Shown here piece after piece: positions 10,974 to 30,402 of a stretch of 64,000 nucleotides of DNA. The stretch is from NCBI GenBank assembly GCA_045631185.1, contig JAZQUH010000039.1:9522-73521 (forward strand), written 5' to 3'. Source of the stretch: Alphaproteobacteria bacterium (lineage in GTDB: Bacteria; Pseudomonadota; Alphaproteobacteria; CAAHEQ01; UBA3637). Positions within the stretch are counted from its first letter, which is position 1; every line of letters starts with the position of its first letter. A program made the position numbers and the translations under genes. The notes beneath the pieces were generated by a model. It ran no database searches. It saw only the letters and a program-made list of their open reading frames with translations, and was not told where the DNA came from.

Positions 10974-13900
10974 TCAGAATTTCCAATTTAATCCTGTTTG
11001 TGCCTTTGTACGGGCTTCAGAATCAATATAAGATAAGACAGAGCCATATAATTCTAAATTATCCTTATTCGACCAGTTGAAACCAGCACGTGCTACAGCA
11101 CGGTTTTCTGAACGGTTTTCATCTTCTACATCAAACGTGCCTGCCATACCATTCATACCCAAACGTAATGTGTAAGGATCGGCAAATTCATGATAGAGCA
11201 TTAAACCAGCGTTTAAGTTTAATTTTCCATCTGTTAATTCGGTCTGTTTTGTTGCATAGAAACCAATACCGCTTTCTACTGACAACATATTTTGGTTTGG
11301 AATTGTTAAACTGAATTCTTTTGCATCTTCACGGCCTTTTTGTTGATAGCCAAGGACGTTGAATTCAAATGTTGGTTCTAAACTCCATCCGGCTAAGTGT
11401 AATGGATATCTGGCTTCGTTCATGATACCATAGACACGTTTTTCGATTTCACCTTCGTAAGAAAGTCCACCCAAGCCTGTACGGTCATATGATCCTTTGG
11501 CGTATCCTAATCGTGGTGAAGTAACCATATCCATTTTACCGACTTTATAACCAAAAGGAACAATCATCTGGTACATTGTATCCTGGCGACTATTACTGTC
11601 ATTATCGTCATCACTACTGATATCTGTAAAGGCGATACCCAAGCCAACAGATGTTGCGCCATCACGTTTGTTTACTAAACCATAGCGACTGGTGGAACCC
11701 ACATCGCCCTTGAATGCCATCGGGGAAACAGAACCCGAAATAGACATATGGGCATCTTTATTATGGAACAGATTGTTATTGATATCGTAATTTAATTCAC
11801 GCATCATTGTCAAATCTTCAAAATTGAAGCGAGACAAAACATCTTTTCCTGTCAGTTCTTTTAAACTATTATTTAAAGCAGATTCGCTTCCAAACGATTT
11901 CAGTTTGTTATAGAAATTTTCATTATTTTCTAAGGCATAGTTTTGACTTAAGAACCCTGCCAAAGAAGAGTTATCCATAACATCTGAAAATTCTTTCATC
12001 TTCATGATGACATCTGTTCCATTATCAGCCAAAGAGGCGTCGAACAAAGCAGATTCGGATTTCAATGTCAACTTGGATGTGTCGGGTGAAGAAATCATAC
12101 CTTTTTCGGTATAGACCTTATCAAACCCTTTGGTAACCGTATCCGAAGCAATGCCAGCTTCACCATAAATGGATGTTGTTCCTGTTGTTTTTGAACCAGA
12201 GGATAAGGTTAATTTTAAAGCAGAAGCATCAATGGTTGGGGCTATAAGTTCGCCAGCGTTATTAACGTTTGACAAACTGCCATTTGGTCCCAATTTAATG
12301 AAGTTGCCTTCCTCTTTTGAACCATCAACATTTGTTCCAGCTTCTACGCCATTTACTTTAATTGTTCCTGTATTCTTAATGTATGTTTCGCTTCCGTTAA
12401 TATAAATACCATAGGCATTCGCACCGTATGCACCTTCTTCGCCAACACTTACGAAAATGTTTCCTTCGTTAATGATGGAAGAGGTAGGACTGTCCAAATA
12501 AATACCATAGGCTTCGGCCAATTTATTTGAAGATGATACATCAATTGTTCCTGTGTTTTTAATCACATTGCGGAAATTGCTGCCTGCCATGATACCATAG
12601 GCATTACCACCGCTGGAAACAGTAATATTACGGCTGTTTTCTATATAGCTATCCCCATTTGTAATAATACCATATAAATTCTGATTAGAAGGTGCAGTAA
12701 GTCGAATTGTACCGGAATTTATAACTTTGTAACCTCTGCCGGCATGAATACCATAAGAAATTTCGCCAGTATTTACTGTACCTTGATCATAAGTTGATTC
12801 TAAATTTATAGTACCCTCGTTAAGCACAGTTTTGTTTGAAGATGAATCTTCTACATGTATACCTGTTGCAGTTATTCTTTTTTCATTCGTAATGGTTATT
12901 GTACCTGTATTTGTGATATCACTGTCGTCCAGAGAATAGATACCGGTTGCAGCATTTGTTAATTTACTGCTTAAGTTAATTGCGCCCGAATTAACAACAC
13001 TGGATAATGCTTTGCTTCCGTTGTTATATATACCAAAAAATGTTGTCCTTTCGGCAGTTTCAGAAGTATTTGACAGATTAATTTTTCCGCTATTTGTGGT
13101 TATTCCCTGGTCATTGTGGATACCGACCAAACCAGCATCAGTTGTTTGTGTTTGTAATGAAATGTCACCTGAGTTGGTTACGTTTAACATTGCCGTGCTG
13201 TCTGTTACCGTTGGATCTATTTCGGCCAATATACCATATCCATTCTCTTTGATATTTGTTAATGAAATACCCGAGCCATTTGTGGGATTACTAATGATTC
13301 CACTGCCCGAATTTGTAAAGGCATAAGTTCCTGTTTTTTGATCGGTTTTAAAATTGGAACCAAAAGCAGTGAGATAATTGTCAATTTTAATTGTTCCACT
13401 GTTTTCGGCCGTTCCGTTTATGGTATGTATACCAGCAGCAATCTTACCATCATATGTGGTTGAAATATCAATAACCCCTTTGTTTATGGAGTTTTTAAGT
13501 GGAAGTGTTCCGTCTTGTGCTGAATGGATACCTACTACATCATTTACATCCTTAATGGTTATTTTTCCGCCAGCACCATTGACGGCTTCTTTTGCGTGTA
13601 TACCAGTGGCTGTCCCCAGGTTTGCAGCGCCGGTTTGTTGAATTATGATATCCCCATTGTTAGATGCGGTAATATCCGATTGAATGGCAACATATTCACC
13701 GTCTGCTGATGAAGTCAGTGAAATCAAGTCATTTAATCTGCTGTGGGCCCCATTTTTACCGTATATTCCGGTCAATTTTGTGTCAGCATTTTTGCCGCTT
13801 AATTCAATTTTCCCTTGGGATACATCATTATTGGAATTGTATGAATTATTATTGGAATATAATCCATAAAATTCCTTGGTTGAAACAGGGGCTGTGCTTG

Positions 13901-16900
13901 CTTCTATAATCTTAATGTTACCAACAGCAGTTGAGTCTTCTCCGTGGGCGTTATAGACATCTGATTCAGAACGCATACCATACACATTTGCGGTACTACT
14001 GTCTTTAATAGAGATAGTTGCTGTTGCCCCTGAACCGTCACCAACTGATTGGGCGTTATAAGTACCATTGATGCCGACCACATTGCCTGTCATTTTTATA
14101 CCAACAGTATTATCAATTTCTAACATACCAACAGCATTACCACCATTTGTTGCATAAGCATTTACACCAGTAATACCAACAATTTCACCCTTCATGTTCC
14201 CCTCGGCCTTATTGGTCATATAAACACCCGCATTTGCCTCTGTTCCTTCCCCATTGGCTTTTGCGTTATAGGAGGTTACATCACCAAAACCGCCCAAACC
14301 ACGTAAGGAAAGCTCAGTCGTGCTGACAGAACCAGTAACTTCTGTGTCAAAATAAATACCACCTTGGGTCTTTTTGTTGATATTGTCTGCCAAAGCGTTT
14401 ATACCATTACCCAATGCATAAAGAATAAAATTGGATTTTCCTGATGTAGTGGTCGTATCAATTCTTTTATCAATCTCTTTTGTTGTATTGAGTGCGCCAT
14501 CTGTTAAATCAGTAGCCGCTATGGAAGAAGAGTATTGAACACATTTTCCGTTTAGTTTTTGATAGTTTTCGGCACAAGCAGAACATTTAGGACCTGTATA
14601 ACCTGGTGCACAAACTCCACATATACACTGTCCCGAAGTTGCGTCAAATGTGGGAGCCCCTGTACAGTTTGGGATCGCCATGCTAGCACAAGTAGGTGCT
14701 GTACAGCTTAATTTGTCGGCGGATAAGACATAATCCCCTTCACATTTGTTACATTGATGTAATGTATCCGTCCCACGTAAACAGGAGTCGCCTGTTTCGC
14801 AGTTTGCAACAGCCGTTGGATTACCTGTACAGGCAGGATCTGGTATACAGGTATTTGTTGTTGAATCCAGAGCATATCCAGGTTCACATGTCGTGCATGT
14901 ATATAATGTATCCGTCCCATGTAAACAGGTCGTTGGAGTTTTGCAGTTTGCAATAGTCGTTGGACTACCTGTACAGGCAGGATCTGGTATACAATTATTA
15001 TTGGTTCCAGGCTCAAAGCCTTCGTTACATGCTGTACATGTATAATAAATTGTTCCTGCTGAATTACAGGTTGTTGGGGCGTCACAGCCTGTATTATCTG
15101 TGTTTGTGCTGGTACATGCTATAGGTGTACAGTTATCTCCTTCATATCCAGCGTCACATGTATCGCATTTGTCATTTGTTTGTGTTTCGCAATTTGGAAT
15201 TTCTGCATAACATTTACCGTCGGCCCCTTCTGTATAACCAGTATCACATGTATCGCATTTGTCATTAGGTTGATGGGCGCAATTTGGAACTGTGGGATAA
15301 CATTTGTGGTCGTCTCCTTCAGTGTAATTAGGTGCGCAAGTTTCGCATTTAAAACCCATATAACCAATTGCACAAAGTCCACATATACACTGTCCCGAAG
15401 TTGCGTCAAATATGGGAGCCCCTGTACAGTTTACGATCGCCATACTAACACAAGCAGGTTCAGTACAGCTTAATTTGTCGGCGGATAAGACATAATCCCC
15501 TCTACATTTGTTACATTGATGTAATGTATCCGTCCCACGTAAACAGGAGTCGCCTGTTTCGCAGTTTGCAACAGCCGTTGGATTGCCTGTACAGGCAGGA
15601 TCTGGTATACAATTATTATTTGTTCCGAGCACAAATCCGGCGGTACATGCTGTACATGTATAATAAATTGTTCCTGCTGAATTACAGGTTGTTGGGGCAT
15701 CACAACCGGTATTATCTGTGTTTGTGCTGGGACATGTTACAGGTGTACATGCATTTGCTTGCAAATTCCAACCGTCTTCACAACTGTTACACTGGTCATT
15801 TATTTGTGTTTCGCAATTTGGAATTTCTGCATAACATTTACCGTCGGTCCCTAACTTATAACCTGTGTTACAACTTGTACAAGTGTAAAAAGAATTTTCT
15901 CCTGACTGACATGTATTATATGTGGCGCATCCTGTTAAAGATGAATTCGTTGTTGGACAGACTACCGTTTTACATCTTCCACCATCTACTTCCCATCCTG
16001 CTTTACATTGGGAACAGGTGTTGCCTGTTTGTTTTCCTGTTTCACAATTTGGAATTTCCAAATAACATTGATTGTTATACAAAGTGTAACCTGAGGCGCA
16101 ACCAGAACAAGTGCTATCATGTTGCGTTAGACAGTTATCAATCTTTTTATAACATTTTCCGTTTGAACCTAGTTGATGTGTACTTAAACACTCTGTACAA
16201 TTATAATAATAATTGCTTGCACCAGATTGACATCGATCATAATTGCTACATCCGTCGGTGGATGTGTTCAAAACGGGGCATGACGTAATGGTGCAGGTAT
16301 TATTTTCCAGTGTCCAACCCGCTTTACACTTAGGACATGTATCTGCGTTTTGTCCATCACAGTTTTGGATTTCACGATAACAGCGATTATTCTGTTTTAT
16401 ATAGTTTGTTTCGCAAGCATCGCATTGGTTGTCCTTTTGTATGGCACAATTGTCGATCTTCACTTTACAGCTTTTTCCATCTACGCTTGGTATATAACCA
16501 TTATTGCACGACAGACAAAGATCTTTTGGTTGATGAATGCAGTTGTTAATTTTGGGATAACACCCTCCATCTGTTCCTTCGTGATATCCTGTTGCACAAC
16601 TGCTACAATCTAATCCAGAAAAACCCTTTTGACAGGCTAGCACTTTATATTTTGTTATGCCAAATGCGGTACTTGACAAACATTTAGCCGCACGAGTCGG
16701 GCAACTGTCTAAAGTATAAGTGCTGTGATCATCATTAATGCTGGGGCTACTGTCGCTGCCGCCACCACCGCCGCCACCACCGGCAGCCAAAGCTATTCCA
16801 CCACCGATAAGGGCTGCAACCCCAACGCCGATGCCAACTTTTTGTGCGGTGGAAAGACCAGATGAACTTTCCACTCTCACTCCAGATAAAAGATTAGGGG

Positions 16901-17321
16901 CATTTGAATTTGCTATCCAAGGACTTTTTGTGGAGGACGGCACAGATTTGGGGACAACAGTTTTATTTTCTGATATGCGTGAATTATGGTTTTGAGCCCA
17001 AGAAGCGTAACCTTCATTAAAACTTACAATTTCTTCTTCTGAGATATTTTGAATACAATCATGTGTGATACTTGCGCCCAGTTTTCTGAGCATGGCATAA
17101 GCTGTATAATTTTTGCTTTGAATAGCATTACATAAGGAGGAATCGCCATTTTCGTCAGCTAAATCCAACTGATAGCCCATATCACTTATTTTTTGCAGAT
17201 TGGTTTCATTTCCCTTGCCTGCCCAATAATAAATTGCTTGCTGAGGTGTCATCATATCAGAAGCAAAACCTTGTGCAACAAAGCCCAATGTTGTCAGTGT
17301 AAATAGCAATTTTTTAAACAT
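10974..17321 (-). CDS. Giant BigA-like autotransporter with Cys-rich repeat region (2115 aa)
   Basis: Signal peptide; ankyrin-like N-domain; hydrophobic segment then poly-Gly; about 720 aa of CxxC repeats; N(S/T)GxI beta-helix repeats; beta-barrel ending GLNWKF. Confidence 0.88.
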   Translation of the reverse strand: MFKKLLFTLTTLGFVAQGFASDMMTPQQAIYYWAGKGNETNLQKISDMGYQLDLADENGDSSLCNAIQSKNYTAYAMLRKLGASITHDCIQNISEEEIVSFNEGYASWAQNHNSRISENKTVVPKSVPSSTKSPWIANSNAPNLLSGVRVESSSGLSTAQKVGIGVGVAALIGGGIALAAGGGGGGGGSDSSPSINDDHSTYTLDSCPTRAAKCLSSTAFGITKYKVLACQKGFSGLDCSSCATGYHEGTDGGCYPKINNCIHQPKDLCLSCNNGYIPSVDGKSCKVKIDNCAIQKDNQCDACETNYIKQNNRCYREIQNCDGQNADTCPKCKAGWTLENNTCTITSCPVLNTSTDGCSNYDRCQSGASNYYYNCTECLSTHQLGSNGKCYKKIDNCLTQHDSTCSGCASGYTLYNNQCYLEIPNCETGKQTGNTCSQCKAGWEVDGGRCKTVVCPTTNSSLTGCATYNTCQSGENSFYTCTSCNTGYKLGTDGKCYAEIPNCETQINDQCNSCEDGWNLQANACTPVTCPSTNTDNTGCDAPTTCNSAGTIYYTCTACTAGFVLGTNNNCIPDPACTGNPTAVANCETGDSCLRGTDTLHQCNKCRGDYVLSADKLSCTEPACVSMAIVNCTGAPIFDATSGQCICGLCAIGYMGFKCETCAPNYTEGDDHKCYPTVPNCAHQPNDKCDTCDTGYTEGADGKCYAEIPNCETQTNDKCDTCDAGYEGDNCTPIACTSTNTDNTGCDAPTTCNSAGTIYYTCTACNEGFEPGTNNNCIPDPACTGSPTTIANCKTPTTCLHGTDTLYTCTTCEPGYALDSTTNTCIPDPACTGNPTAVANCETGDSCLRGTDTLHQCNKCEGDYVLSADKLSCTAPTCASMAIPNCTGAPTFDATSGQCICGVCAPGYTGPKCSACAENYQKLNGKCVQYSSSIAATDLTDGALNTTKEIDKRIDTTTTSGKSNFILYALGNGINALADNINKKTQGGIYFDTEVTGSVSTTELSLRGLGGFGDVTSYNAKANGEGTEANAGVYMTNKAEGNMKGEIVGITGVNAYATNGGNAVGMLEIDNTVGIKMTGNVVGINGTYNAQSVGDGSGATATISIKDSSTANVYGMRSESDVYNAHGEDSTAVGNIKIIEASTAPVSTKEFYGLYSNNNSYNSNNDVSQGKIELSGKNADTKLTGIYGKNGAHSRLNDLISLTSSADGEYVAIQSDITASNNGDIIIQQTGAANLGTATGIHAKEAVNGAGGKITIKDVNDVVGIHSAQDGTLPLKNSINKGVIDISTTYDGKIAAGIHTINGTAENSGTIKIDNYLTAFGSNFKTDQKTGTYAFTNSGSGIISNPTNGSGISLTNIKENGYGILAEIDPTVTDSTAMLNVTNSGDISLQTQTTDAGLVGIHNDQGITTNSGKINLSNTSETAERTTFFGIYNNGSKALSSVVNSGAINLSSKLTNAATGIYSLDDSDITNTGTITITNEKRITATGIHVEDSSSNKTVLNEGTINLESTYDQGTVNTGEISYGIHAGRGYKVINSGTIRLTAPSNQNLYGIITNGDSYIENSRNITVSSGGNAYGIMAGSNFRNVIKNTGTIDVSSSNKLAEAYGIYLDSPTSSIINEGNIFVSVGEEGAYGANAYGIYINGSETYIKNTGTIKVNGVEAGTNVDGSKEEGNFIKLGPNGSLSNVNNAGELIAPTIDASALKLTLSSGSKTTGTTSIYGEAGIASDTVTKGFDKVYTEKGMISSPDTSKLTLKSESALFDASLADNGTDVIMKMKEFSDVMDNSSLAGFLSQNYALENNENFYNKLKSFGSESALNNSLKELTGKDVLSRFNFEDLTMMRELNYDINNNLFHNKDAHMSISGSVSPMAFKGDVGSTSRYGLVNKRDGATSVGLGIAFTDISSDDDNDSNSRQDTMYQMIVPFGYKVGKMDMVTSPRLGYAKGSYDRTGLGGLSYEGEIEKRVYGIMNEARYPLHLAGWSLEPTFEFNVLGYQQKGREDAKEFSLTIPNQNMLSVESGIGFYATKQTELTDGKLNLNAGLMLYHEFADPYTLRLGMNGMAGTFDVEDENRSENRAVARAGFNWSNKDNLELYGSVLSYIDSEARTKAQTGLNWKF
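14615..15740 (-). repeat. Near-identical intragenic duplications in the Cys-rich region
   Basis: About 14615-14849 matches 15377-15611 (offset 762); about 14968-15120 matches 15586-15738 (offset 618). Confidence 0.9.
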
Positions 17322-17474
17322 GTTTCCCCCTTGGGTTACAATACGACTTACTACCCTTATACATAAAAAAAATATAAAAATCAACACTTTTTTTTGCTTT
17401 TTTATTATTCTTTATATGGAAAATCCAAAATAATAGTTTTTTTGTTTAAAAAGATAGCTAAATAAAAAAATCTA

Positions 17475-17503
17475 TTGACAAATAAAAATGAAAGATATAT
17501 AAT
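17475..17503 (+). promoter_or_regulatory. Sigma70 promoter
   Basis: TTGACA (17475-80)-17 bp-TATAAT (17498-503). Confidence 0.9.
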
Positions 17504-17511
17504 CCGTCCCT

Positions 17512-17592
17512 ATGACAAAAAGTTTAAATTTGTTTGCTTTTAATTACGCCTATTTGTGGTTGTTTAGATCACAAAGGGTCTTTTTGTCGTAA
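17512..17592 (+). CDS. Attenuator leader peptide MTKSLNLFAFNYAYLWLFRSQRVFLS
   Basis: ATG 8 nt after the -10 box; F/Y/W at every second codon from 8 to 18; overlaps alternative hairpins. Confidence 0.85.
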   Translation: MTKSLNLFAFNYAYLWLFRSQRVFLS

Positions 17593-17651
17593 CTGAAATG
17601 TAAAATTTAAATGGCAATAAAGGCTCTTTCTTACGAAAGGGCGTTTTTTTT
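17549..17651 (+). promoter_or_regulatory. Ribosome-mediated transcription attenuator (1:2, 2:3 and 3:4 hairpins)
   Basis: 1:2 = tttgtggtt/gatcacaaa; 2:3 = aaagggtctttttgtcgt/atggcaataaaggctcttt; 3:4 terminator = gctctttc-ttac-gaaagggc followed by T8. Confidence 0.85.
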
Positions 17652-17675
17652 ATTTTAAAGAAAGGAAAAATCACA

Positions 17676-19328
17676 ATGTCGGACGATATAAAAATTTTAA
17701 AGGCTTTGCCTGTTTTGCAAAAAACAAGCAACACTCAAACGCTTTCGGATTATTTTAAAGAAACGGTTGCGCCTTTGGGTGAAATTCAGGATAATCCCGA
17801 GAAAAAAATACTGACAGATGCGATTTTTCAACAAACAGAACGTCTTTATGGGGTGGATGTTGCGAAGGAAGTATGTGAACAAGTTAATCGTTTTCCTGTG
17901 GTTGAAACAGGCACCCATTTGGCCCTTTTACGTGATTATGATACACCCAAAAAGGATGATTTGCGTTCCCGTTTAAATCAAAATGTTTTGATTTCATCGG
18001 CTTTGATGCGTCATATGGGGCAAAAATATCATGTGGGTGTTTATGGCAGTAATGTTAATTTGAATCACCCCTGTGGTGGTGGCTTTTTCCAATTGGGTGA
18101 TGATATTTTTCCTGTTGCACAATTGCGTCAAATAAATCAGAATTGTTTGTATGACGCCCCAAGTATAGATAAAAATTATTTTAACGAAGCTTTACCTTTG
18201 GTGGCCAAATTAAATATGTTAAATAGTGTTTTGACCAATGAAGCCATAGACAAAACACAATCTCCACATAAAGAAATGTTGCAAAAAACAAAAAAAGTGA
18301 TAACCAGATTATTGGAACCAGTCAGTCAAGGAAAGATGGCTTATTCAATTGTACAAAAACAATATCAGACCTTGAATGAGAATAATCAAAATGCCATTAA
18401 AAAGGCTATGTTGCTTTTGTCGGCCGATGCTTATAAAAAATATGGTTATACTTTTTCGGATGTGGATAAACAATATCTCCAATTACAGGAAGTTTTTAAT
18501 CGTCAGGATTTAAAATTACCCGATCAGGTTGCCTTAATTCAATCAAATACAATCAATAAAGTCTTACAGGGATCCGATATTAAACACATATCTGTGGATG
18601 CGGTAGAAGTGGCACGTCAATTTTTAATTTCATCATTGGAAAACAAAAACAGTTTATGGTATAATATTTTTAACAATTCGGAAAAGTTTAACAAAATGCA
18701 TCAATCTTTTATTGGTATCAGGGGCAGTTGGAAAGCAAATGAATCTGTCTTTGATTATGTTGCACGGGACAAAGGATTTTCAAAAACAAAAACTTTGCCG
18801 GTTGAAGCTCTTGATCATAAACCTGAAACACTTTTACCTTTGTTAAAAGACAGAAAAATTATACCATCCAGTGCGTTATTGATTTTGCTTTTCCAAAGCG
18901 CAAGTGTTATGGCGCATGGTGGTTTTTTCCAAACGACTTATGCCGATAAAATAAAAAAACGGTTTGTGAATTATTTAAGTGATATCGGTGAAGTCAAACG
19001 TTCCGAGCAACTTCAAAAATTGCCGGTGGATATGGCATTATTGTCTTTGGCGGTCCTTAAGGATAAAACCGGACAACCGATGAAACTGTCCGATATTTCA
19101 CGCATACAAGAGGATAAAAGAAAACAAGTGATAAATGAAATTCCGACTTATCCGTCCCATCAAGCCGTTTCAAATGCTTTACCTGTTTTGGGAAAATATT
19201 TGGATGCCACAGCCCCAGGCTATGTTGAATCAGAGGCCAGATATGCGGATGTTCCTCAATTGATATCTCAGCATAAAAATACATCAAATATATTTTCTCA
19301 AACACAAAAATTGGAGAGATCTGCATGA
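17676..19328 (+). CDS. Hypothetical 550-aa protein, possibly distantly BshC/ligase-like
   Basis: AAGGA RBS; PVVETGTH and HGGFFQTTY motifs; family assignment is speculative. Confidence 0.8.
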   Translation: MSDDIKILKALPVLQKTSNTQTLSDYFKETVAPLGEIQDNPEKKILTDAIFQQTERLYGVDVAKEVCEQVNRFPVVETGTHLALLRDYDTPKKDDLRSRLNQNVLISSALMRHMGQKYHVGVYGSNVNLNHPCGGGFFQLGDDIFPVAQLRQINQNCLYDAPSIDKNYFNEALPLVAKLNMLNSVLTNEAIDKTQSPHKEMLQKTKKVITRLLEPVSQGKMAYSIVQKQYQTLNENNQNAIKKAMLLLSADAYKKYGYTFSDVDKQYLQLQEVFNRQDLKLPDQVALIQSNTINKVLQGSDIKHISVDAVEVARQFLISSLENKNSLWYNIFNNSEKFNKMHQSFIGIRGSWKANESVFDYVARDKGFSKTKTLPVEALDHKPETLLPLLKDRKIIPSSALLILLFQSASVMAHGGFFQTTYADKIKKRFVNYLSDIGEVKRSEQLQKLPVDMALLSLAVLKDKTGQPMKLSDISRIQEDKRKQVINEIPTYPSHQAVSNALPVLGKYLDATAPGYVESEARYADVPQLISQHKNTSNIFSQTQKLERSA

Positions 19329-19939
19329 TTTTAAAACGTATTTTATCGACACATATCAAATCAAATCTGATATATGCTACAAAAAACAATGCTTTTTATA
19401 AGGATATGTATTCATCCTTTGGCTTAAAAGAAGCCTTGGTGCATCCCAAATTATATGACTGTCTGATTCGGTTGGAACCATTATTGGCATCCAAATCATT
19501 GATATTGGTTATTTATGATGCGTTCAGGCCGTTGGCTATTCAAAAATTTATGTATGAAACAGCTCCCGATTATTTAAAGCCTTATATCGCACCACCGCCT
19601 AAACCCGATTCCAAACGTGGGTTTCATCCCCGTGGTGTAGCCATAGATTGTTATTTGACAGATACGCAGGGCAATATACTTTCTTTTCCGACAGAACCGG
19701 ATGCTTTTTATCCCGGATATGAAAAAGACAATAATTATCCGAAGTATTTGAAAAAATGCCATCGTGATTACAATGGGTCGGATATAAATGAAGAACAAAA
19801 AAATAATCGTGCCCTTTTGGAATCAATGATGGCATCTGTTGGATTGGAAGGATTGCCCCATGAATGGTGGCATTTTAACCTGCCCAACGCATGGGAATAT
19901 CCGTTGATTGAATCTTTGGAAAAAGTGGATATTGAATAA
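19325..19939 (+). CDS. M15 family (VanX/DdpX-like) D-Ala-D-Ala dipeptidase
   Basis: IYDAFRP, GFHPRGVAID, EWWHF; ATGA overlap with the upstream gene. Confidence 0.9.
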   Translation: MILKRILSTHIKSNLIYATKNNAFYKDMYSSFGLKEALVHPKLYDCLIRLEPLLASKSLILVIYDAFRPLAIQKFMYETAPDYLKPYIAPPPKPDSKRGFHPRGVAIDCYLTDTQGNILSFPTEPDAFYPGYEKDNNYPKYLKKCHRDYNGSDINEEQKNNRALLESMMASVGLEGLPHEWWHFNLPNAWEYPLIESLEKVDIE

Positions 19940-19968
19940 CTATTGATTATAGATTATTCTCTTTTTAT

Positions 19969-20571
19969 TTATTTAAGATTTGCATTAATTTCATTTATCA
20001 TTAATACAATATTTGTGGTAAATATTTTGACAGCCATTGAAACCAAAATCAAACCGAAGAACTTTTGAAGTGTATACAAAAAACTAGGCCCGATAATTTT
20101 GTTGATTTTTTTTAGCCCTTTTAGGATAGCAAAGATAATTATTGCATTTAATAAACAGGCGATTAAAATATTGATGCTTTGATATTGGGCCCGCAAACTG
20201 ATTAAGGTGGTAAAAGTTCCGGCGCCGATTAAAAGCGGGAAAACAACAGGCATGAAAGTGGTATCCTGTGAGGCACTTTCTTTTGATTTGAAAAAATTCA
20301 TATCTAATATCATCCCCAGACCAATTAAAAAAATCACAAAAGAACCGGCTACGGCAAAGGATGATACAGTAACGCCCAACAAACTTAAAAAGGTGTCACC
20401 GATATAGAAAAAGGAAATTAAAATAAATAATGACATCAATGCGGCTTTTAGTGGATATATAACTTTTCCTTCTTTTTGTAAATTGATAAAAATCGGAATG
20501 TTTCCCAAAGCATTAATGACCGCAAACAAAACAATAAAAGCATTAAAAATTTCGGAATATGAAATGTGCAT
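19969..20571 (-). CDS. MarC family membrane protein
   Basis: LFAVINALGNIPIF; PVVFPLLIGAG; about six TM segments. Confidence 0.92.
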   Translation of the reverse strand: MHISYSEIFNAFIVLFAVINALGNIPIFINLQKEGKVIYPLKAALMSLFILISFFYIGDTFLSLLGVTVSSFAVAGSFVIFLIGLGMILDMNFFKSKESASQDTTFMPVVFPLLIGAGTFTTLISLRAQYQSINILIACLLNAIIIFAILKGLKKINKIIGPSFLYTLQKFFGLILVSMAVKIFTTNIVLMINEINANLK

Positions 20572-20634: not shown

Positions 20635-22002
20635 TTAATTGTTTCGTTGATTTTTCTGTCTGAAAATCAAATTATGACAAAGATTATCCACAGATGGGAT
20701 TGTTTTTCGTTCTTGTTGTATAATTTTATCCGATTGACCGTGGGCGATAGGATTTCTTTTTAAAAATAATTCTTCAGCATTTTCAACTTCTTTTTTTGAA
20801 AGAAGTTTTTGCTGCATTAAAAATTTAATTTTTTCCTTCGTTGATTTAGATTGTAACTCTTTCGGTAACAATTCGTTGATTGTGGCATCTAATTTGGCAC
20901 TTCTGCGTATAATTTCATAAGAATTATATAATCCTGAAATTTCTTGCAGTTTGAATAAATCAGGAAAAGTTTTGGTATATTCGGATAAAAATTTTCTGTC
21001 AATAAAATGTGTAACAAAATCCATATATAAATCGGCGATTAAAACGTTTGCTTTTTCACCGAAATGAACGGTATTTCTGTCATGTGCTAATTCATTACGG
21101 GCGTTTTCACAGTGAATGTAACCGGTGGCATTGGAAATATAATTAAACTTTTTAGCAAACAAAAAAATGGCATTTTTATTTTGTTTTAACCGTTGTTGTG
21201 CCTGTTGTTTTGTTGGGGCAATATCTTGGTGATGTTCTTGAATTAAAACATCCGTTAAAAAACGACGCGTATTATCGGCCAAATACATAATCAAAGGCGC
21301 ATCACAACCTTTAATGGCTTCTGTTTCTGCGTTTTCATAGGTTCGTGCCATCCAAAATTTTTGCCATTGTTGTTGTGTGTAAGGTGGGGGTGTTTGATTA
21401 TAAAAATCACAGAGCATATTTTCCACTTCCGTCAATCTCATTAATAAATCAGGATTTTTTTTCAATCTGTCCATATTCGGTTGTGCATCTGCAAAATTCG
21501 CCTTGATTAAATAAGGGTGTTTTAGGGAAGTTGCCAAAAATTCACGGGTTGGAACATTTTCTATTAAGGTTAAGGCTTCGTTATTTTTAAAATAAGAAGA
21601 TTGTTTATCTTTGCATATATTGATTAAAAAATCTCTTTTGTGAAAATCGTCCAAACTCATGGCATCGGGCATGATTACTTGAAAAATTTCGTTTTGGTAA
21701 TCTTGTTCTATCAATCTTTGAGCTTCATCATTTAGTTGTTGAAACTGATACCGACAGTATAGCCCCAATGATTGTAAACGTAATGCATATTGTAAAATAT
21801 TTTTTAATCTTGGGTAAAAATTCTTTATTCTGAATGGTACTTTTGTATAAGGGGTCGCCAGTTTTTCAAATTCTTCGGAAGTTAGATTATGGCTTACGGA
21901 AAGGTTTTTATCTTTATCCAAATAAAAACACATATTCTCTGGGGCACCAGAAAATTCAATAACAGGACTTATATGGGATTTAATTTCTTCTTTGCTAATC
22001 AT
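20635..22002 (-). CDS. Protein with two HEPN-like RNxxAH motifs
   Basis: ARNELAHD (21082-21099) and KRNPIAHG (20740-20757), each preceded by a helical segment typical of HEPN domains; start chosen at MISKEE. Confidence 0.7.
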   Translation of the reverse strand: MISKEEIKSHISPVIEFSGAPENMCFYLDKDKNLSVSHNLTSEEFEKLATPYTKVPFRIKNFYPRLKNILQYALRLQSLGLYCRYQFQQLNDEAQRLIEQDYQNEIFQVIMPDAMSLDDFHKRDFLINICKDKQSSYFKNNEALTLIENVPTREFLATSLKHPYLIKANFADAQPNMDRLKKNPDLLMRLTEVENMLCDFYNQTPPPYTQQQWQKFWMARTYENAETEAIKGCDAPLIMYLADNTRRFLTDVLIQEHHQDIAPTKQQAQQRLKQNKNAIFLFAKKFNYISNATGYIHCENARNELAHDRNTVHFGEKANVLIADLYMDFVTHFIDRKFLSEYTKTFPDLFKLQEISGLYNSYEIIRRSAKLDATINELLPKELQSKSTKEKIKFLMQQKLLSKKEVENAEELFLKRNPIAHGQSDKIIQQERKTIPSVDNLCHNLIFRQKNQRNN

Positions 22003-22147
22003 TGTAAAATATAACCAAAATTCAATCAATTATACCATAAAACTACTAATTTTTCAATCTCAATATTCAATACACAAATGTTTTGGATTTTGATTGACTT
22101 TTCTTATTCAACAAATTATGATTATTTTAACAATATCGGAGGCTAAT

Positions 22148-23230
22148 ATGTCTGTATCAAAAATTGTTTTAACCGGGGGACCTTGTGCCGGAAAAACGAC
22201 GGCTCTCAGCATAATCGAACAAAAACTAACCGAAAAAGGATATAAAGTTATCGTTGTTTCGGAATCGGCAACCGAAATGATGCAGTCTGGATTTTCATCA
22301 TCAGATTTAGGGGTTAAAGATTTTGAAAACTATATCATAGATTGGCAAATCGCCAAAGAAAATATCGCCTTTCAGGCCGCCGATCATTTTCAAAAAACAA
22401 TCATCTTACTGGATCGGGGCATTCCTGATTGTATGGCGTATATGAATAAAAATGATTATATAGACGCTTTAAAACGTCATGGTTTATCGTTACAAGAAAC
22501 ACTCAATCGTTATGATGCTGTTTTTCATTTGGTAACAACAGCCGATGGTGCGGAAAAATTTTATACATGTGCTAATAACACTGTCAGAAAAGAAAAAGAT
22601 TTGGAATCTGCCCGCAAATCAGATAAAGCAACACAAAATGCTTACATTGGACATCCGCATTTACGTGTCATTGACAATGAAACAGATTTTTTCGGCAAAA
22701 TCACGAAATTATGTTCGGAAATTTTTAATGCCTTGGGTGAACCCGTTCCTTTGGAAATTGAACGAAAATTTTTAATACAAAAACCGACAGATGAAAAACT
22801 GAAACAATTAGGGGCCGTTGAACAAAAAATTACCCAAGCATATCTAACTCCAAATGGCAAAACAGAACGCAGAATCCGGCAACGCGGAACTGATTCCGAT
22901 TTTACATATTACTATACGGAAAAAACGACTTTATCCGACTTAAAACGAATTGAACGCGAACGCAAGATTACAAAAAATGAATATCTGAATTTGCTGACAG
23001 AAGCGAAAAAAATCTTGCATAAAAATCGTTGGTGTTTTTTGCAAAACGGCTTATATTTTGAATTGGATACATTTGATGATGCTCCTGATAAAGCATTATT
23101 GGAAATAGAATTGAATCAGGAAAACCAACAAATAAAGCTGCCCGATGGGTGCCAAATAATTAAAGAAGTCACAAATGATTCGAATTATCGAAACACAGCC
23201 ATTGCACAAAATGGTTTTCCCAAAGGTTAA
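22148..23230 (+). CDS. P-loop nucleotide-kinase-like (AAA_28/TTD14) domain fused to a CYTH domain
   Basis: VLTGGPCAGKTT, LDRG; C-terminal EIERKFL, RIRQR, ELD, LLEIEL; GGAGG RBS. Confidence 0.9.
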   Translation: MSVSKIVLTGGPCAGKTTALSIIEQKLTEKGYKVIVVSESATEMMQSGFSSSDLGVKDFENYIIDWQIAKENIAFQAADHFQKTIILLDRGIPDCMAYMNKNDYIDALKRHGLSLQETLNRYDAVFHLVTTADGAEKFYTCANNTVRKEKDLESARKSDKATQNAYIGHPHLRVIDNETDFFGKITKLCSEIFNALGEPVPLEIERKFLIQKPTDEKLKQLGAVEQKITQAYLTPNGKTERRIRQRGTDSDFTYYYTEKTTLSDLKRIERERKITKNEYLNLLTEAKKILHKNRWCFLQNGLYFELDTFDDAPDKALLEIELNQENQQIKLPDGCQIIKEVTNDSNYRNTAIAQNGFPKG

Positions 23231-29475: not shown

Positions 29476-30213
29476 ATGTTTAAACGTTTGAAAAATTGGC
29501 TTTTTAATCGTCCGCCGGAAGATCATATGGTGGCATCTTTTGCTTGGGTTATCGGAACTTTTGCGGCAATTGGTTCAGCGGTGGCTTTTCCGGCGATAGC
29601 ATCTGTTGCCGTTGGTGTTGCCAGCTTTACATACCTTATGGCTTTGGCCGAAGGTGCTTACGGAATTGGTGGAATGATTGGTAATTTTTGCAATTGGGTA
29701 TATAGGAAAATTTTTAAATCAAAAAAACAGCCTGTAAATAATCAAAATCAGCCTTCTAAATCAGATAAGCAGCCTCAGGCCGAACAGGAAAAAGACAACG
29801 GTCGGGAACAACCCCAGCCGGAAAAAGAAAACGGCAAAGGTAAAGAACAGCCACAGCCGGGACAGGAAAAAGGTAAAGAAGAACCTCAGGCAGAACAGAA
29901 AAACGGCAAAGGAAAAGAACAACCCCAGCTGGGACAAGATGAACCTCAGGAACAACCTCAGGCCGAACCTGTTGAGCCAAAACAACAGCCGATAACTTTA
30001 AATTCAAAAGAATTTTTGATTTTAATTCGCCAAATGCAGATTTTGATGCAATTGCTCCAACAAACCAGAATGGAATTGGAGGCTTTGCGTCAAAAGAATA
30101 AAACTTTGACTTTGGAAAATAAAAATTCAAAAGATTTAGATCGACCTATTTCCAGACGAAATCGTCCTTTAAATCGTAATTATCTTCCAAATTCACGATT
30201 TGTGCGTCATTAA
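29476..30213 (+). CDS. Hypothetical membrane-anchored protein with Q/E/P-rich repeats and a coiled coil
   Basis: N-terminal hydrophobic segments; repeated KNGKGKEQPQ/QPQAE; AAGGAG RBS and TTGACA..TATAAT promoter. Confidence 0.8.
   Translation: MFKRLKNWLFNRPPEDHMVASFAWVIGTFAAIGSAVAFPAIASVAVGVASFTYLMALAEGAYGIGGMIGNFCNWVYRKIFKSKKQPVNNQNQPSKSDKQPQAEQEKDNGREQPQPEKENGKGKEQPQPGQEKGKEEPQAEQKNGKGKEQPQLGQDEPQEQPQAEPVEPKQQPITLNSKEFLILIRQMQILMQLLQQTRMELEALRQKNKTLTLENKNSKDLDRPISRRNRPLNRNYLPNSRFVRH
29768..29970 (+). repeat. Imperfect intragenic tandem repeats
   Basis: Recurrent cctcaggccgaac, aaacggcaaagg and gaacaaccccagc units. Confidence 0.7.
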
Positions 30214-30216
30214 AAT

Positions 30217-30245
30217 AAAATCCCCACTTGTTTGGGGATTTTTTT
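30217..30245. terminator. Bidirectional intrinsic terminator
   Basis: aaaatcccca...tggggattttttt. Confidence 0.75.
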
Positions 30246-30268
30246 ATGATTATAAATTTGAGTATAAA

Positions 30269-30344
<76 letters not shown>

Positions 30345-30402
30345 ACAAAAAGTATTCTACCCGAAAATTTCGCAAAAATCAAGTTTTCTTTTAAAATAAA
30401 GT

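Follow-up and report, generated by a model that had tools for sequence, protein, structure and literature searches.

Textbook examples of leader-peptide attenuators control genes for the biosynthesis of amino acids or for the charging of tRNAs, and the locus described here raises the question of why an element built like them should stand in front of a protein without a sequence family and a VanX/DdpX-like dipeptidase. The locus lies in a 64,000-nt stretch (hereafter the window; contig JAZQUH010000039.1, positions 9,522 to 73,521 of the forward strand) of the alphaproteobacterial assembly GCA_045631185.1 (genome G000; 0.99 Mb, 76% complete, 38.7% G+C), and coordinates given without a locus name refer to this window. 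A promoter and a short leader open reading frame (ORF) precede two genes, P0001 (550 aa, 17676..19328, plus strand) and P0002 (204 aa, 19325..19939, plus strand). The trp/phe-type three-hairpin architecture that overlaps the essentially leaderless short ORF is real. We consider it rather likely that it works as a leaderless, ribosome-mediated transcription attenuator, through which a scarcity of charged hydrophobic tRNAs in auxotrophic cells would switch on a D-Ala-linked pair consisting of a ligase-fold protein and a dipeptidase.

Leader architecture and its conservation

The sigma-70 promoter (17475..17503, plus strand) is composed of TTGACA (17475-17480), a 17-nt spacer and TATAAT (17498-17503). 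In a consensus scan of 17200-20200 it was the sole 12/12 match, and since the 14 promoter-like sites of that region equal the shuffle mean (14.0), only the perfect match is notable. Eight nucleotides past the -10 box (intervening string ccgtccct), an ATG at 17512 opens the leader ORF of 26 codons (17512..17592, plus strand; MTKSLNLFAFNYAYLWLFRSQRVFLS plus TAA), with aromatic residues at F8 F10 Y12 Y14 W16 F18 and aromatics making up 7 of the 26 codons. Three competing hairpins span the stretch from within this ORF to the terminator: a 1:2 hairpin (17553..17575, plus strand; 17553-61 with 17567-75, extended by 17548-51 with 17576-79), a 2:3 antiterminator (17573..17629, plus strand; 17573-90 with 17611-29, 18 pairs and one bulge) and a 3:4 intrinsic terminator (17623..17651, plus strand), the stem of which (GCTCTTTC-TTAC-GAAAGGGC, 17623-17642) is followed by a G and by T8 at 17644-51. 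A preliminary description of this DNA, made from the letters alone, had listed the perfect promoter, the leaderless 26-codon ORF with its alternating aromatics and the three mutually exclusive hairpins; all of them were present at the coordinates it had given. To these hairpins the minimum free energy folds add an outer stem, P1, in which the 5' strand including the start codon (17512..17522, plus strand) pairs with the last ORF codons (17580-17590).

The fold of 17505-17660, which contains the 1:2 stem, reaches -37.3 kcal/mol (z -3.36, 0/200 shuffles as good), and low energies were also obtained for the ORF (-21.3 kcal/mol, z -3.8, 1/200 shuffles as good), for the antiterminator folded alone as 17566-17631 (-16.7 kcal/mol, z -4.05, 0/200 shuffles as good) and for the terminator (-12.3 kcal/mol, z -4.3). 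Because of the alternative folds, segment 2 pairs either back, with the 5' end and the middle of the ORF, or forward, with the 5' arm of the terminator. A search of 16500-20500 against Rfam 15 gave seven matches at E ≤ 10, all far below the gathering scores, and these (KRAS_3UTR, SNORA69, PyrR and others) were dismissed as chance level; no leader family (Phe, Trp, His, Leu, Thr) appeared at E ≤ 10.

Relatives of P0001 were gathered by a word-indexed search (37 relatives, the few named ones being "hypothetical protein" from Alphaproteobacteria metagenome-assembled genomes (MAGs)), by a scan of genome collections (19 loci, nearly all from ruminant gut or rumen MAGs labelled Alphaproteobacteria) and by a scan of metagenomes (just 4 extra loci, 3 of them partial). 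After duplicate removal, the comparison set comprised 20 distinct full-length upstream regions; L031, which is partial, and L033, which is atypical, were considered as well. Among the compared loci P0001 identity is 37 to 70%, and the 20 full-length loci all come from MAGs of uncultured Alphaproteobacteria of the ruminant gut, whose genomes measure about 1 Mb. The P0001 gene was present in 11 of the 37 genomes of the window's GTDB family (G000 counted), in none of 24 other families of the class and, according to the A1 profile search (E ≤ 1e-5), in none of 400 other genomes of the phylum. The records L014 and L025, which carry the operon, are titled 'uncultured Lactobacillales'; for L014 this label looks wrong, as it is identical to L006, a locus of G025, a member of the window's own GTDB family.

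At 20/20 full-length loci TTGACA is accompanied by a -10-like hexamer, a short ORF (24-28 codons) is present, and a terminator hairpin with a T-run precedes the Shine-Dalgarno sequence of the gene, so that the conservation of leader and hairpins in homologues, on which the preliminary description had made its proposal depend, was observed throughout. The ATG lies 6-9 nt past the -10 box in 18/20 loci (L022 was counted by its second ATG, chosen by eye against its relatives, the script having picked an earlier one); L011, and also L033, have a Shine-Dalgarno sequence before the leader ORF instead of a leaderless start. At L033 the block of terminator and Shine-Dalgarno sequence is present in tandem duplicate (L033:758-1060) and a 36-codon leader ORF begins behind the first copy, which accounts for the lack of a nearby TTGACA. 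The leader ATG is invariant and the stops TAA, TAG and TGA are all in use; frame 1 is open in 20/20 loci (partly by selection), frame 2 in 0/20 and frame 3 in 4/20, and a composition-matched shuffle of the leader ORF stays open with a probability of 0.08-0.17 per locus.

At the RNA level, both-side changes across the 20 leaders affect 10 of the 14 pairs of the 1:2 hairpin and 5 of the 8 pairs of the terminator, and four of five whole-structure measures exceed 500/500 shuffles. Within clade A, the window's own clade (8 sequences), 98.9% of the cells of the 11-pair P1 stem are paired, with one compensatory change from C-G to U-A. The RNAalifold consensus of the 8 clade-A leaders is the long antiterminator, and that of clade B is a hairpin plus a 7-bp antiterminator.

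The same conservation bears on a reading in which the ORF is incidental and the 5' stem, the internal hairpin and the terminator/antiterminator respond as an RNA-only switch to a ligand, a protein or temperature. Pairing of the 5' end with the 3' end of the ORF is reminiscent of a riboswitch P1, and a conserved CUCUUUU segment (judged by eye) falls in one reading frame in clade A and in another in clade B, which implies an RNA-level constraint on that segment. Such a switch would not, however, call for an invariant ATG at a fixed distance from the -10 box, for a leader frame that is open at every locus with the other frames closed (apart from the four loci with an open frame 3), or for a stop codon that always abuts the antiterminator arm; moreover, no unpaired core inside P1 is conserved from one clade to the other and no Rfam family was matched at even E 0.01. 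We therefore hold an RNA-only switch to be improbable.

Ribosome position, candidate sensed codons and a second putative attenuator

The effect of a translating ribosome on these hairpins was modelled by computing the pairing probabilities of the terminator 5' arm with the ORF masked through the A-site codon and a further 12 nt; the model describes equilibrium, whereas attenuation is kinetic. Ribosome-free RNA prefers the terminator (P ≥ 0.7) in 18/20 first leaders, the terminators of the two exceptions, L013 and L021, being weak. When the ribosome occupies the stop codon, which among the loci always abuts the antiterminator arm, the antiterminator is formed to ≤ 1% in 20/20 first leaders, and it reaches ≥ 45% only when the A site is at about codons 8-18 (18/20 first leaders). 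The antitermination window of the window's leader spans codons 10-16 (FNYAYLW), and the modelled sensing window falls on hydrophobic codons. What characterizes an attenuator is thus found here in a 5' short ORF, exclusive 1:2, 2:3 and 3:4 hairpins, a fitting placement of the regulatory codons and the stop (in the equilibrium model) and a codon cluster.

In the mechanism that we propose, transcription would start 1-2 nt ahead of the AUG and a 70S ribosome would load on this 5' AUG. Given ample charged tRNAs for codons ~9-18 (Phe, Tyr, Trp and Leu in the window), the ribosome would translate the ORF to its stop codon and, because this codon abuts the 5' arm of the antiterminator, would cover that arm, whereupon the terminator would form and transcription would end near 17651. 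Were the leader not translated at all, the outer stem would hide the AUG, the 1:2 hairpin would form and termination would ensue too. Only a ribosome stalled on the hydrophobic codons would mask segment 1 and free segment 2 for 2:3 pairing, letting RNA polymerase read through into the genes of P0001, which resembles BshC and the aminoacyl-tRNA synthetases (aaRS) in its ligase fold, and of the coupled VanX-like dipeptidase. The stalling logic and the predicted inducing condition, amino-acid starvation, are derived from this geometry.

As for the amino acids that would be reported, the residues in the modelled windows are F 24, W 9, Y 5 and L 9 of 75 in clade A, I 13, F 12, L 10 and M 4 of 52 in the first leaders of clade B (for example MLKMQNFIIIIFTLLFIKQRRVVYL) and F 14 and Y 13 of 38 in the second leaders described below, against a background of 4.2% F, 1.1% W and 3.4% Y (together quoted as 8.6%) in the long ORFs of G000. 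Aromatics account for 7-11 of the 26-27 codons in 6 of the 8 clade-A leaders, and the orthologous leaders of sister clades have Ile/Leu/Phe runs (MLKMQNFIIIIFTLLFIKQ...), Ile/Met runs or Met/Cys runs (MFKRMNMMMDMCC...), the leader of L011 (MFKRMNMMMDMCCSG) being one with a Met/Cys run. The preliminary description had proposed sensing of Phe, Tyr and Trp and had suggested looking for aromatic-rich leaders upstream of P0001 homologues. The aromatic cluster is indeed a property of the window's clade and a leader of the same architecture is present at 20/20 loci, but the aromatic identity is not kept in the leaders of sister clades. As it varies among orthologous leaders, what they have in common is that hydrophobic codons occur in a run.

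Scanning 41 related genomes with a covariance model of the clade-A leaders recovered the known leaders and revealed a further one in G021 (L043; G021:C50, minus strand, 1501-1645), a genome that has no P0001 homologue; there the leader MMTKNVNFFGFYFYSFYFNKQKELFLLS stands ahead of P0186, an orphan of 145 aa. A match in G013 (L044, E 0.007) was set aside as a plain terminator after a gene, and the window itself contains weak matches at 1822-1938 and 30113-30346 (E 0.19-0.63). Homologues of P0186 form the third gene of the clade-B operons (138-147 aa, no family; for 10 gene-3 proteins Pfam gave noise only, E ≥ 0.004), and a search with the P0186 family found gene 3 absent from the window's genome. 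In 9/9 clade-B loci a spacer of ~210 nt after the M15 peptidase gene (the P0002 homologue) holds a promoter, a leaderless ORF and a terminator; this second attenuator lies at L020:5255-5467, with the matching spacer in L021, L022, L023, L026, L028, L029, L030 and L032. Its leader peptide is MITKT[IV]NFFGFYF[YF]SFYFRK (a 26-residue variant in L022), so clade-B loci carry an Ile/Leu/Phe-type and a Phe/Tyr-type attenuator side by side. Two leaders of unlike codon make-up within each clade-B locus, along with the Met/Cys run of L011, argue for codon-specific sensing, which accounts for such paired attenuators more easily than an RNA-only switch or a generically hydrophobic peptide would.

Two further stretches resemble leaders in part. 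In the window's own genome, G000:C38:10218-10420 may hold a second leaderless leader: an ATG 6 nt past the -10 box of a consensus promoter opens an ORF of 16 codons (MFNIEEISFVFNGRRI), and T-runs precede the downstream gene. Another possible attenuator, with a logic of its own, is a stretch at L020:5930-6121 and L026:5885-6089 that is followed by the genes for a 277-aa GNAT-like protein and for a deacylase of the AstE/AspA type.

The leader peptides themselves invite two other explanations. The same architecture could serve another signal if the leader acted as an arrest peptide that depends on a drug or metabolite, or as a general sensor of translation stress, of the kind known from erm, cat, bmrCD and tnaC; in the presence of a ribosome-binding compound, ribosomes would stall on the hydrophobic chain being made. 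Common N-terminal features (a basic residue at position 3-4 and Asn at position 6 in most leader peptides) would fit such a role, as would the Ile/Phe-rich leaders, which recall some macrolide-sensing leaders, and the non-biosynthetic nature of the regulated genes; in G021, in addition, a MatE efflux gene follows 136 nt past P0186. The MatE gene nevertheless has a TTGACA promoter-like site of its own and may be a separate unit, neither regulated protein is like a known ribosome-protection or drug-modifying family, the peptides diverge strongly among clades (F/W/Y, I/L/F, M/C) with no invariant arrest motif, and two leaders of unlike composition occur within one locus. We regard an arrest peptide as unlikely.

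Alternatively, the ORF might encode a functional product (a small membrane peptide, a type I toxin, or a scaffold or precursor for the ligase-fold enzyme and the peptidase), with the terminator setting the stoichiometry. Most leader peptides are hydrophobic with basic flanks, and the combination of a peptide gene, a ligase-fold enzyme and a peptidase brings to mind peptide-scaffold pathways. Yet the C-termini vary (FLS, FLL, VYL, AVC, ISI, CLK), the L011 peptide is not hydrophobic, and ~12 hydrophobic residues in a row do not suffice to cross a membrane; the G021 leader precedes gene 3 alone, without ligase or peptidase, and this reading would explain neither why the hairpins compete nor why the stop codon lies where it does. 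A functional peptide is in our view very improbable.

Several observations weigh against codon-specific attenuation itself. U-rich RNA gives Phe and Leu codons in any frame. In the six most aromatic clade-A leaders the off-frame count of F, W and Y is 1-7 against 7-11 in frame, and the in-frame aromatic excess is missing or reversed in L014, L016 and L017, so that a part of the excess is mere U-richness. The codon mix is heterogeneous, and the window's leader has no long run of a single amino acid. Covariation inside the shallow clade A does not rise above shuffles, and across the 20 leaders the antiterminator is 64.5% paired against 61.3% in shuffles (2/500 as high). The equilibrium model predicts antitermination of L013, L021 and L043 even in the absence of a ribosome, and 4 of 10 second-type leaders peak below 0.45. 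Finally, the regulated genes appear neither to make, import nor charge the amino acids that would be sensed, unlike those of classical attenuators, and a ligase-fold enzyme induced by starvation is not obviously useful. With these points counted in, ribosome-mediated attenuation at hydrophobic codons remains the reading that we favour.

The downstream genes and their hosts

P0001 starts behind a GAAAGGA motif and had been described before as a 550-aa orphan, which is accurate as far as sequence families go: no family was matched at E ≤ 0.01 in Pfam or NCBIfam, BshC models included, a P0001 profile gave 0 matches at E ≤ 10 against PDB sequences, and the matches in the ESM Atlas were to unnamed clusters only. 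It is not an orphan in fold. An AlphaFold2 model computed from a 19-sequence alignment (mean pLDDT 88.3) had weak Foldseek matches in the PDB (nothing at E ≤ 0.001; BshC probability 0.57), while an exhaustive search with VIA-align placed BshC 4wbd_A first (Z 14.6, rmsd 4.4, 349 residues aligned, model 3-502), followed by class I LysRS (Z 10.9), by ArgRS, GlnRS, GluRS, CysRS and MshC (Z 5.5-7.3) and by cyclodipeptide synthases (~4.5). By its modelled fold, P0001 thus belongs with the class I synthetases and other amino-acid-activating enzymes of that group, the closest member being the cysteine-adding enzyme of bacillithiol synthesis. The canonical HxGH and KMSKS strings are absent from its sequence; invariant ETGTHL and P-x-K-L segments of the P0001 family occur in the order expected for HIGH and KMSKS, a possible correspondence judged by order only.

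A wider, thin superfamily emerged from an exhaustive profile search (239 cluster representatives at E ≤ 1e-3), and three of its long, distant members are fusions. P0168 consists of a full alanine racemase (PF01168 1e-41, PF00842 1e-20) and a part that matches the C-terminal half of P0001-family proteins (hhalign 96.5%, GG[FY]FQ motif included), P0094 combines the P0001 C-terminal half (98.8%) with a sub-threshold M15-like tail, and P0142 has a sub-threshold ATP-grasp match. The racemase fusion, the M15 partner and the other fusions point to D-alanine or D-Ala-D-Ala chemistry, for which the racemase fusion and the operon partner are the only solid evidence. PADLOC gave no match for P0001, P0002 or the gene-3 proteins.

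The second gene had been taken for a translationally coupled VanX/DdpX-like peptidase, and both parts of this assignment held, the coupling as a probability. P0002 matches Peptidase_M15 (PF01427, E 1e-14, 55.2 bits against a cut-off of 27) and is far under the equivalog cut-offs of DdpX (NF007557, 91.1 vs 176) and VanX (NF033115, 27.5 vs 320). Compared with VanX 1r44 (E 2.6e-5), it retains RP and EWWH and has HPRGVAID where the VanX chain has H-S-R-G-S-A-I-D; the RP, HPRGVAID and EWWH motifs presumably supply the Zn ligands and catalytic residues. Its start overlaps the stop of P0001 in an ATGA, with GGAGAG 7 nt upstream, and P0002 is probably translationally coupled to P0001. Wherever the locus extends far enough, an M15 gene comes next after the P0001 homologue, the exceptions being L027 (identical to L010) and L011.

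The hosts offer some guidance on what the leaders would report. Chorismate synthase and IlvD were each found in 0/6 carrier genomes including G000, five of which are 94-100% complete, and all control genomes were matched. The carriers thus appear unable to make aromatic or branched-chain amino acids and therefore probably import them, in which case the hungry codons would report the external supply. G000 has Ddl and the Mur ligases and so makes D-Ala-D-Ala. Dtd (PF02580) was found in 1/5 carrier genomes, and as one alphaproteobacterial control was also without it, no inference was drawn.

From these elements a function for the operon can be put together, albeit one that we consider quite unlikely as a whole: a rescue module linked to D-amino acids or D-Ala-D-Ala, in which P0001 would be a new aaRS-fold ligase for D-Ala or a hydrophobic D-amino acid and, with the VanX-like dipeptidase and the separately attenuated clade-B genes, would remodel or salvage D-peptides when charging of Phe, Tyr, Trp, Ile, Leu or Met tRNA falters. 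Charging could falter in this scheme by starvation or by competition from D- or non-canonical hydrophobic amino acids of the gut.

Around the operon, a 2137-aa ORF on the minus strand (10974-17387), divergent from the leader promoter, has no NCBIfam match. On the other side, a MarC gene (19969-20571) lies upstream of a 464-aa ORF without family (20635-22029, minus strand) and of a gene for a 378-aa protein with an AAA_28 NTPase domain and a weak CYTH match (22094-23230, plus strand).

Relation to known systems

If the attenuation reading is true, it would define a starvation or translation-stress regulon in an uncultured lineage, provide a regulatory handle on the function of the unannotated P0001 family, and offer a natural comparison of attenuators in which the codon specificity is swapped (aromatic, Ile/Leu, Met/Cys) and the RNA switch is kept, both within a locus and among sister clades.

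In the pheL/pheA, pheM/pheST, trpL, his, leu and ilv attenuators, termination takes place after full translation of the leader and after none. The present element is like them in that an ORF with clustered codons overlaps segment 1 and three hairpins compete, the last of which is the terminator. It departs from the classical phe/trp/his type by its leaderless start (ATG 6-9 nt past the -10 box) and its additional, AUG-sequestering stem, and from classical attenuators in general by its mixed hydrophobic codons, by BshC-like and VanX-like targets and by hosts without the pathways. Background on the classical attenuators is given in PMC3082878 and PMC1183508.

Leaderless short ORFs have a precedent in mycobacteria, where, according to bioRxiv 10.1101/834739, polycysteine ORFs stand first in a polycistronic transcript and form an amino-acid-responsive attenuator. 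The likeness lies in a leaderless short ORF acting as such an attenuator; the mycobacterial examples have Cys codons and Cys-related operons. The present element has an antiterminator and, at its end, a clear intrinsic terminator. In Sinorhizobium meliloti, trpL is a ribosome-dependent attenuator of which the released RNA and peptide can act in trans (PMC6614838, PMC7298713). It is alphaproteobacterial too, but it has Trp codons only and lies ahead of trpE(G), and the sequences showed no relation; by analogy, a trans action of the released RNA and peptide is a possibility here as well.

P0001 shares its fold with BshC (PDB 4wbd), MshC and the class I aaRS, with no sequence match in Pfam, NCBIfam or the PDB. 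P0002 has the RP, H-x-R-G-x-A-I-D and EWWH motifs in common with VanX/DdpX (M15D), yet its gene, unlike theirs, would be attenuator-controlled and has an aaRS-like partner rather than a Ddl-type ligase or a permease. E. coli ddpX is induced by starvation, and Lessard and Walsh are said to have proposed a "survival" role for DdpX. The parts of the literature that were searched held no description of the element or of the gene pair. The mechanism class is that of the textbook; new are the leaderless construction, a stem that sequesters the AUG, the exchange of codon specificities, the occurrence of attenuators in pairs and the kind of target.

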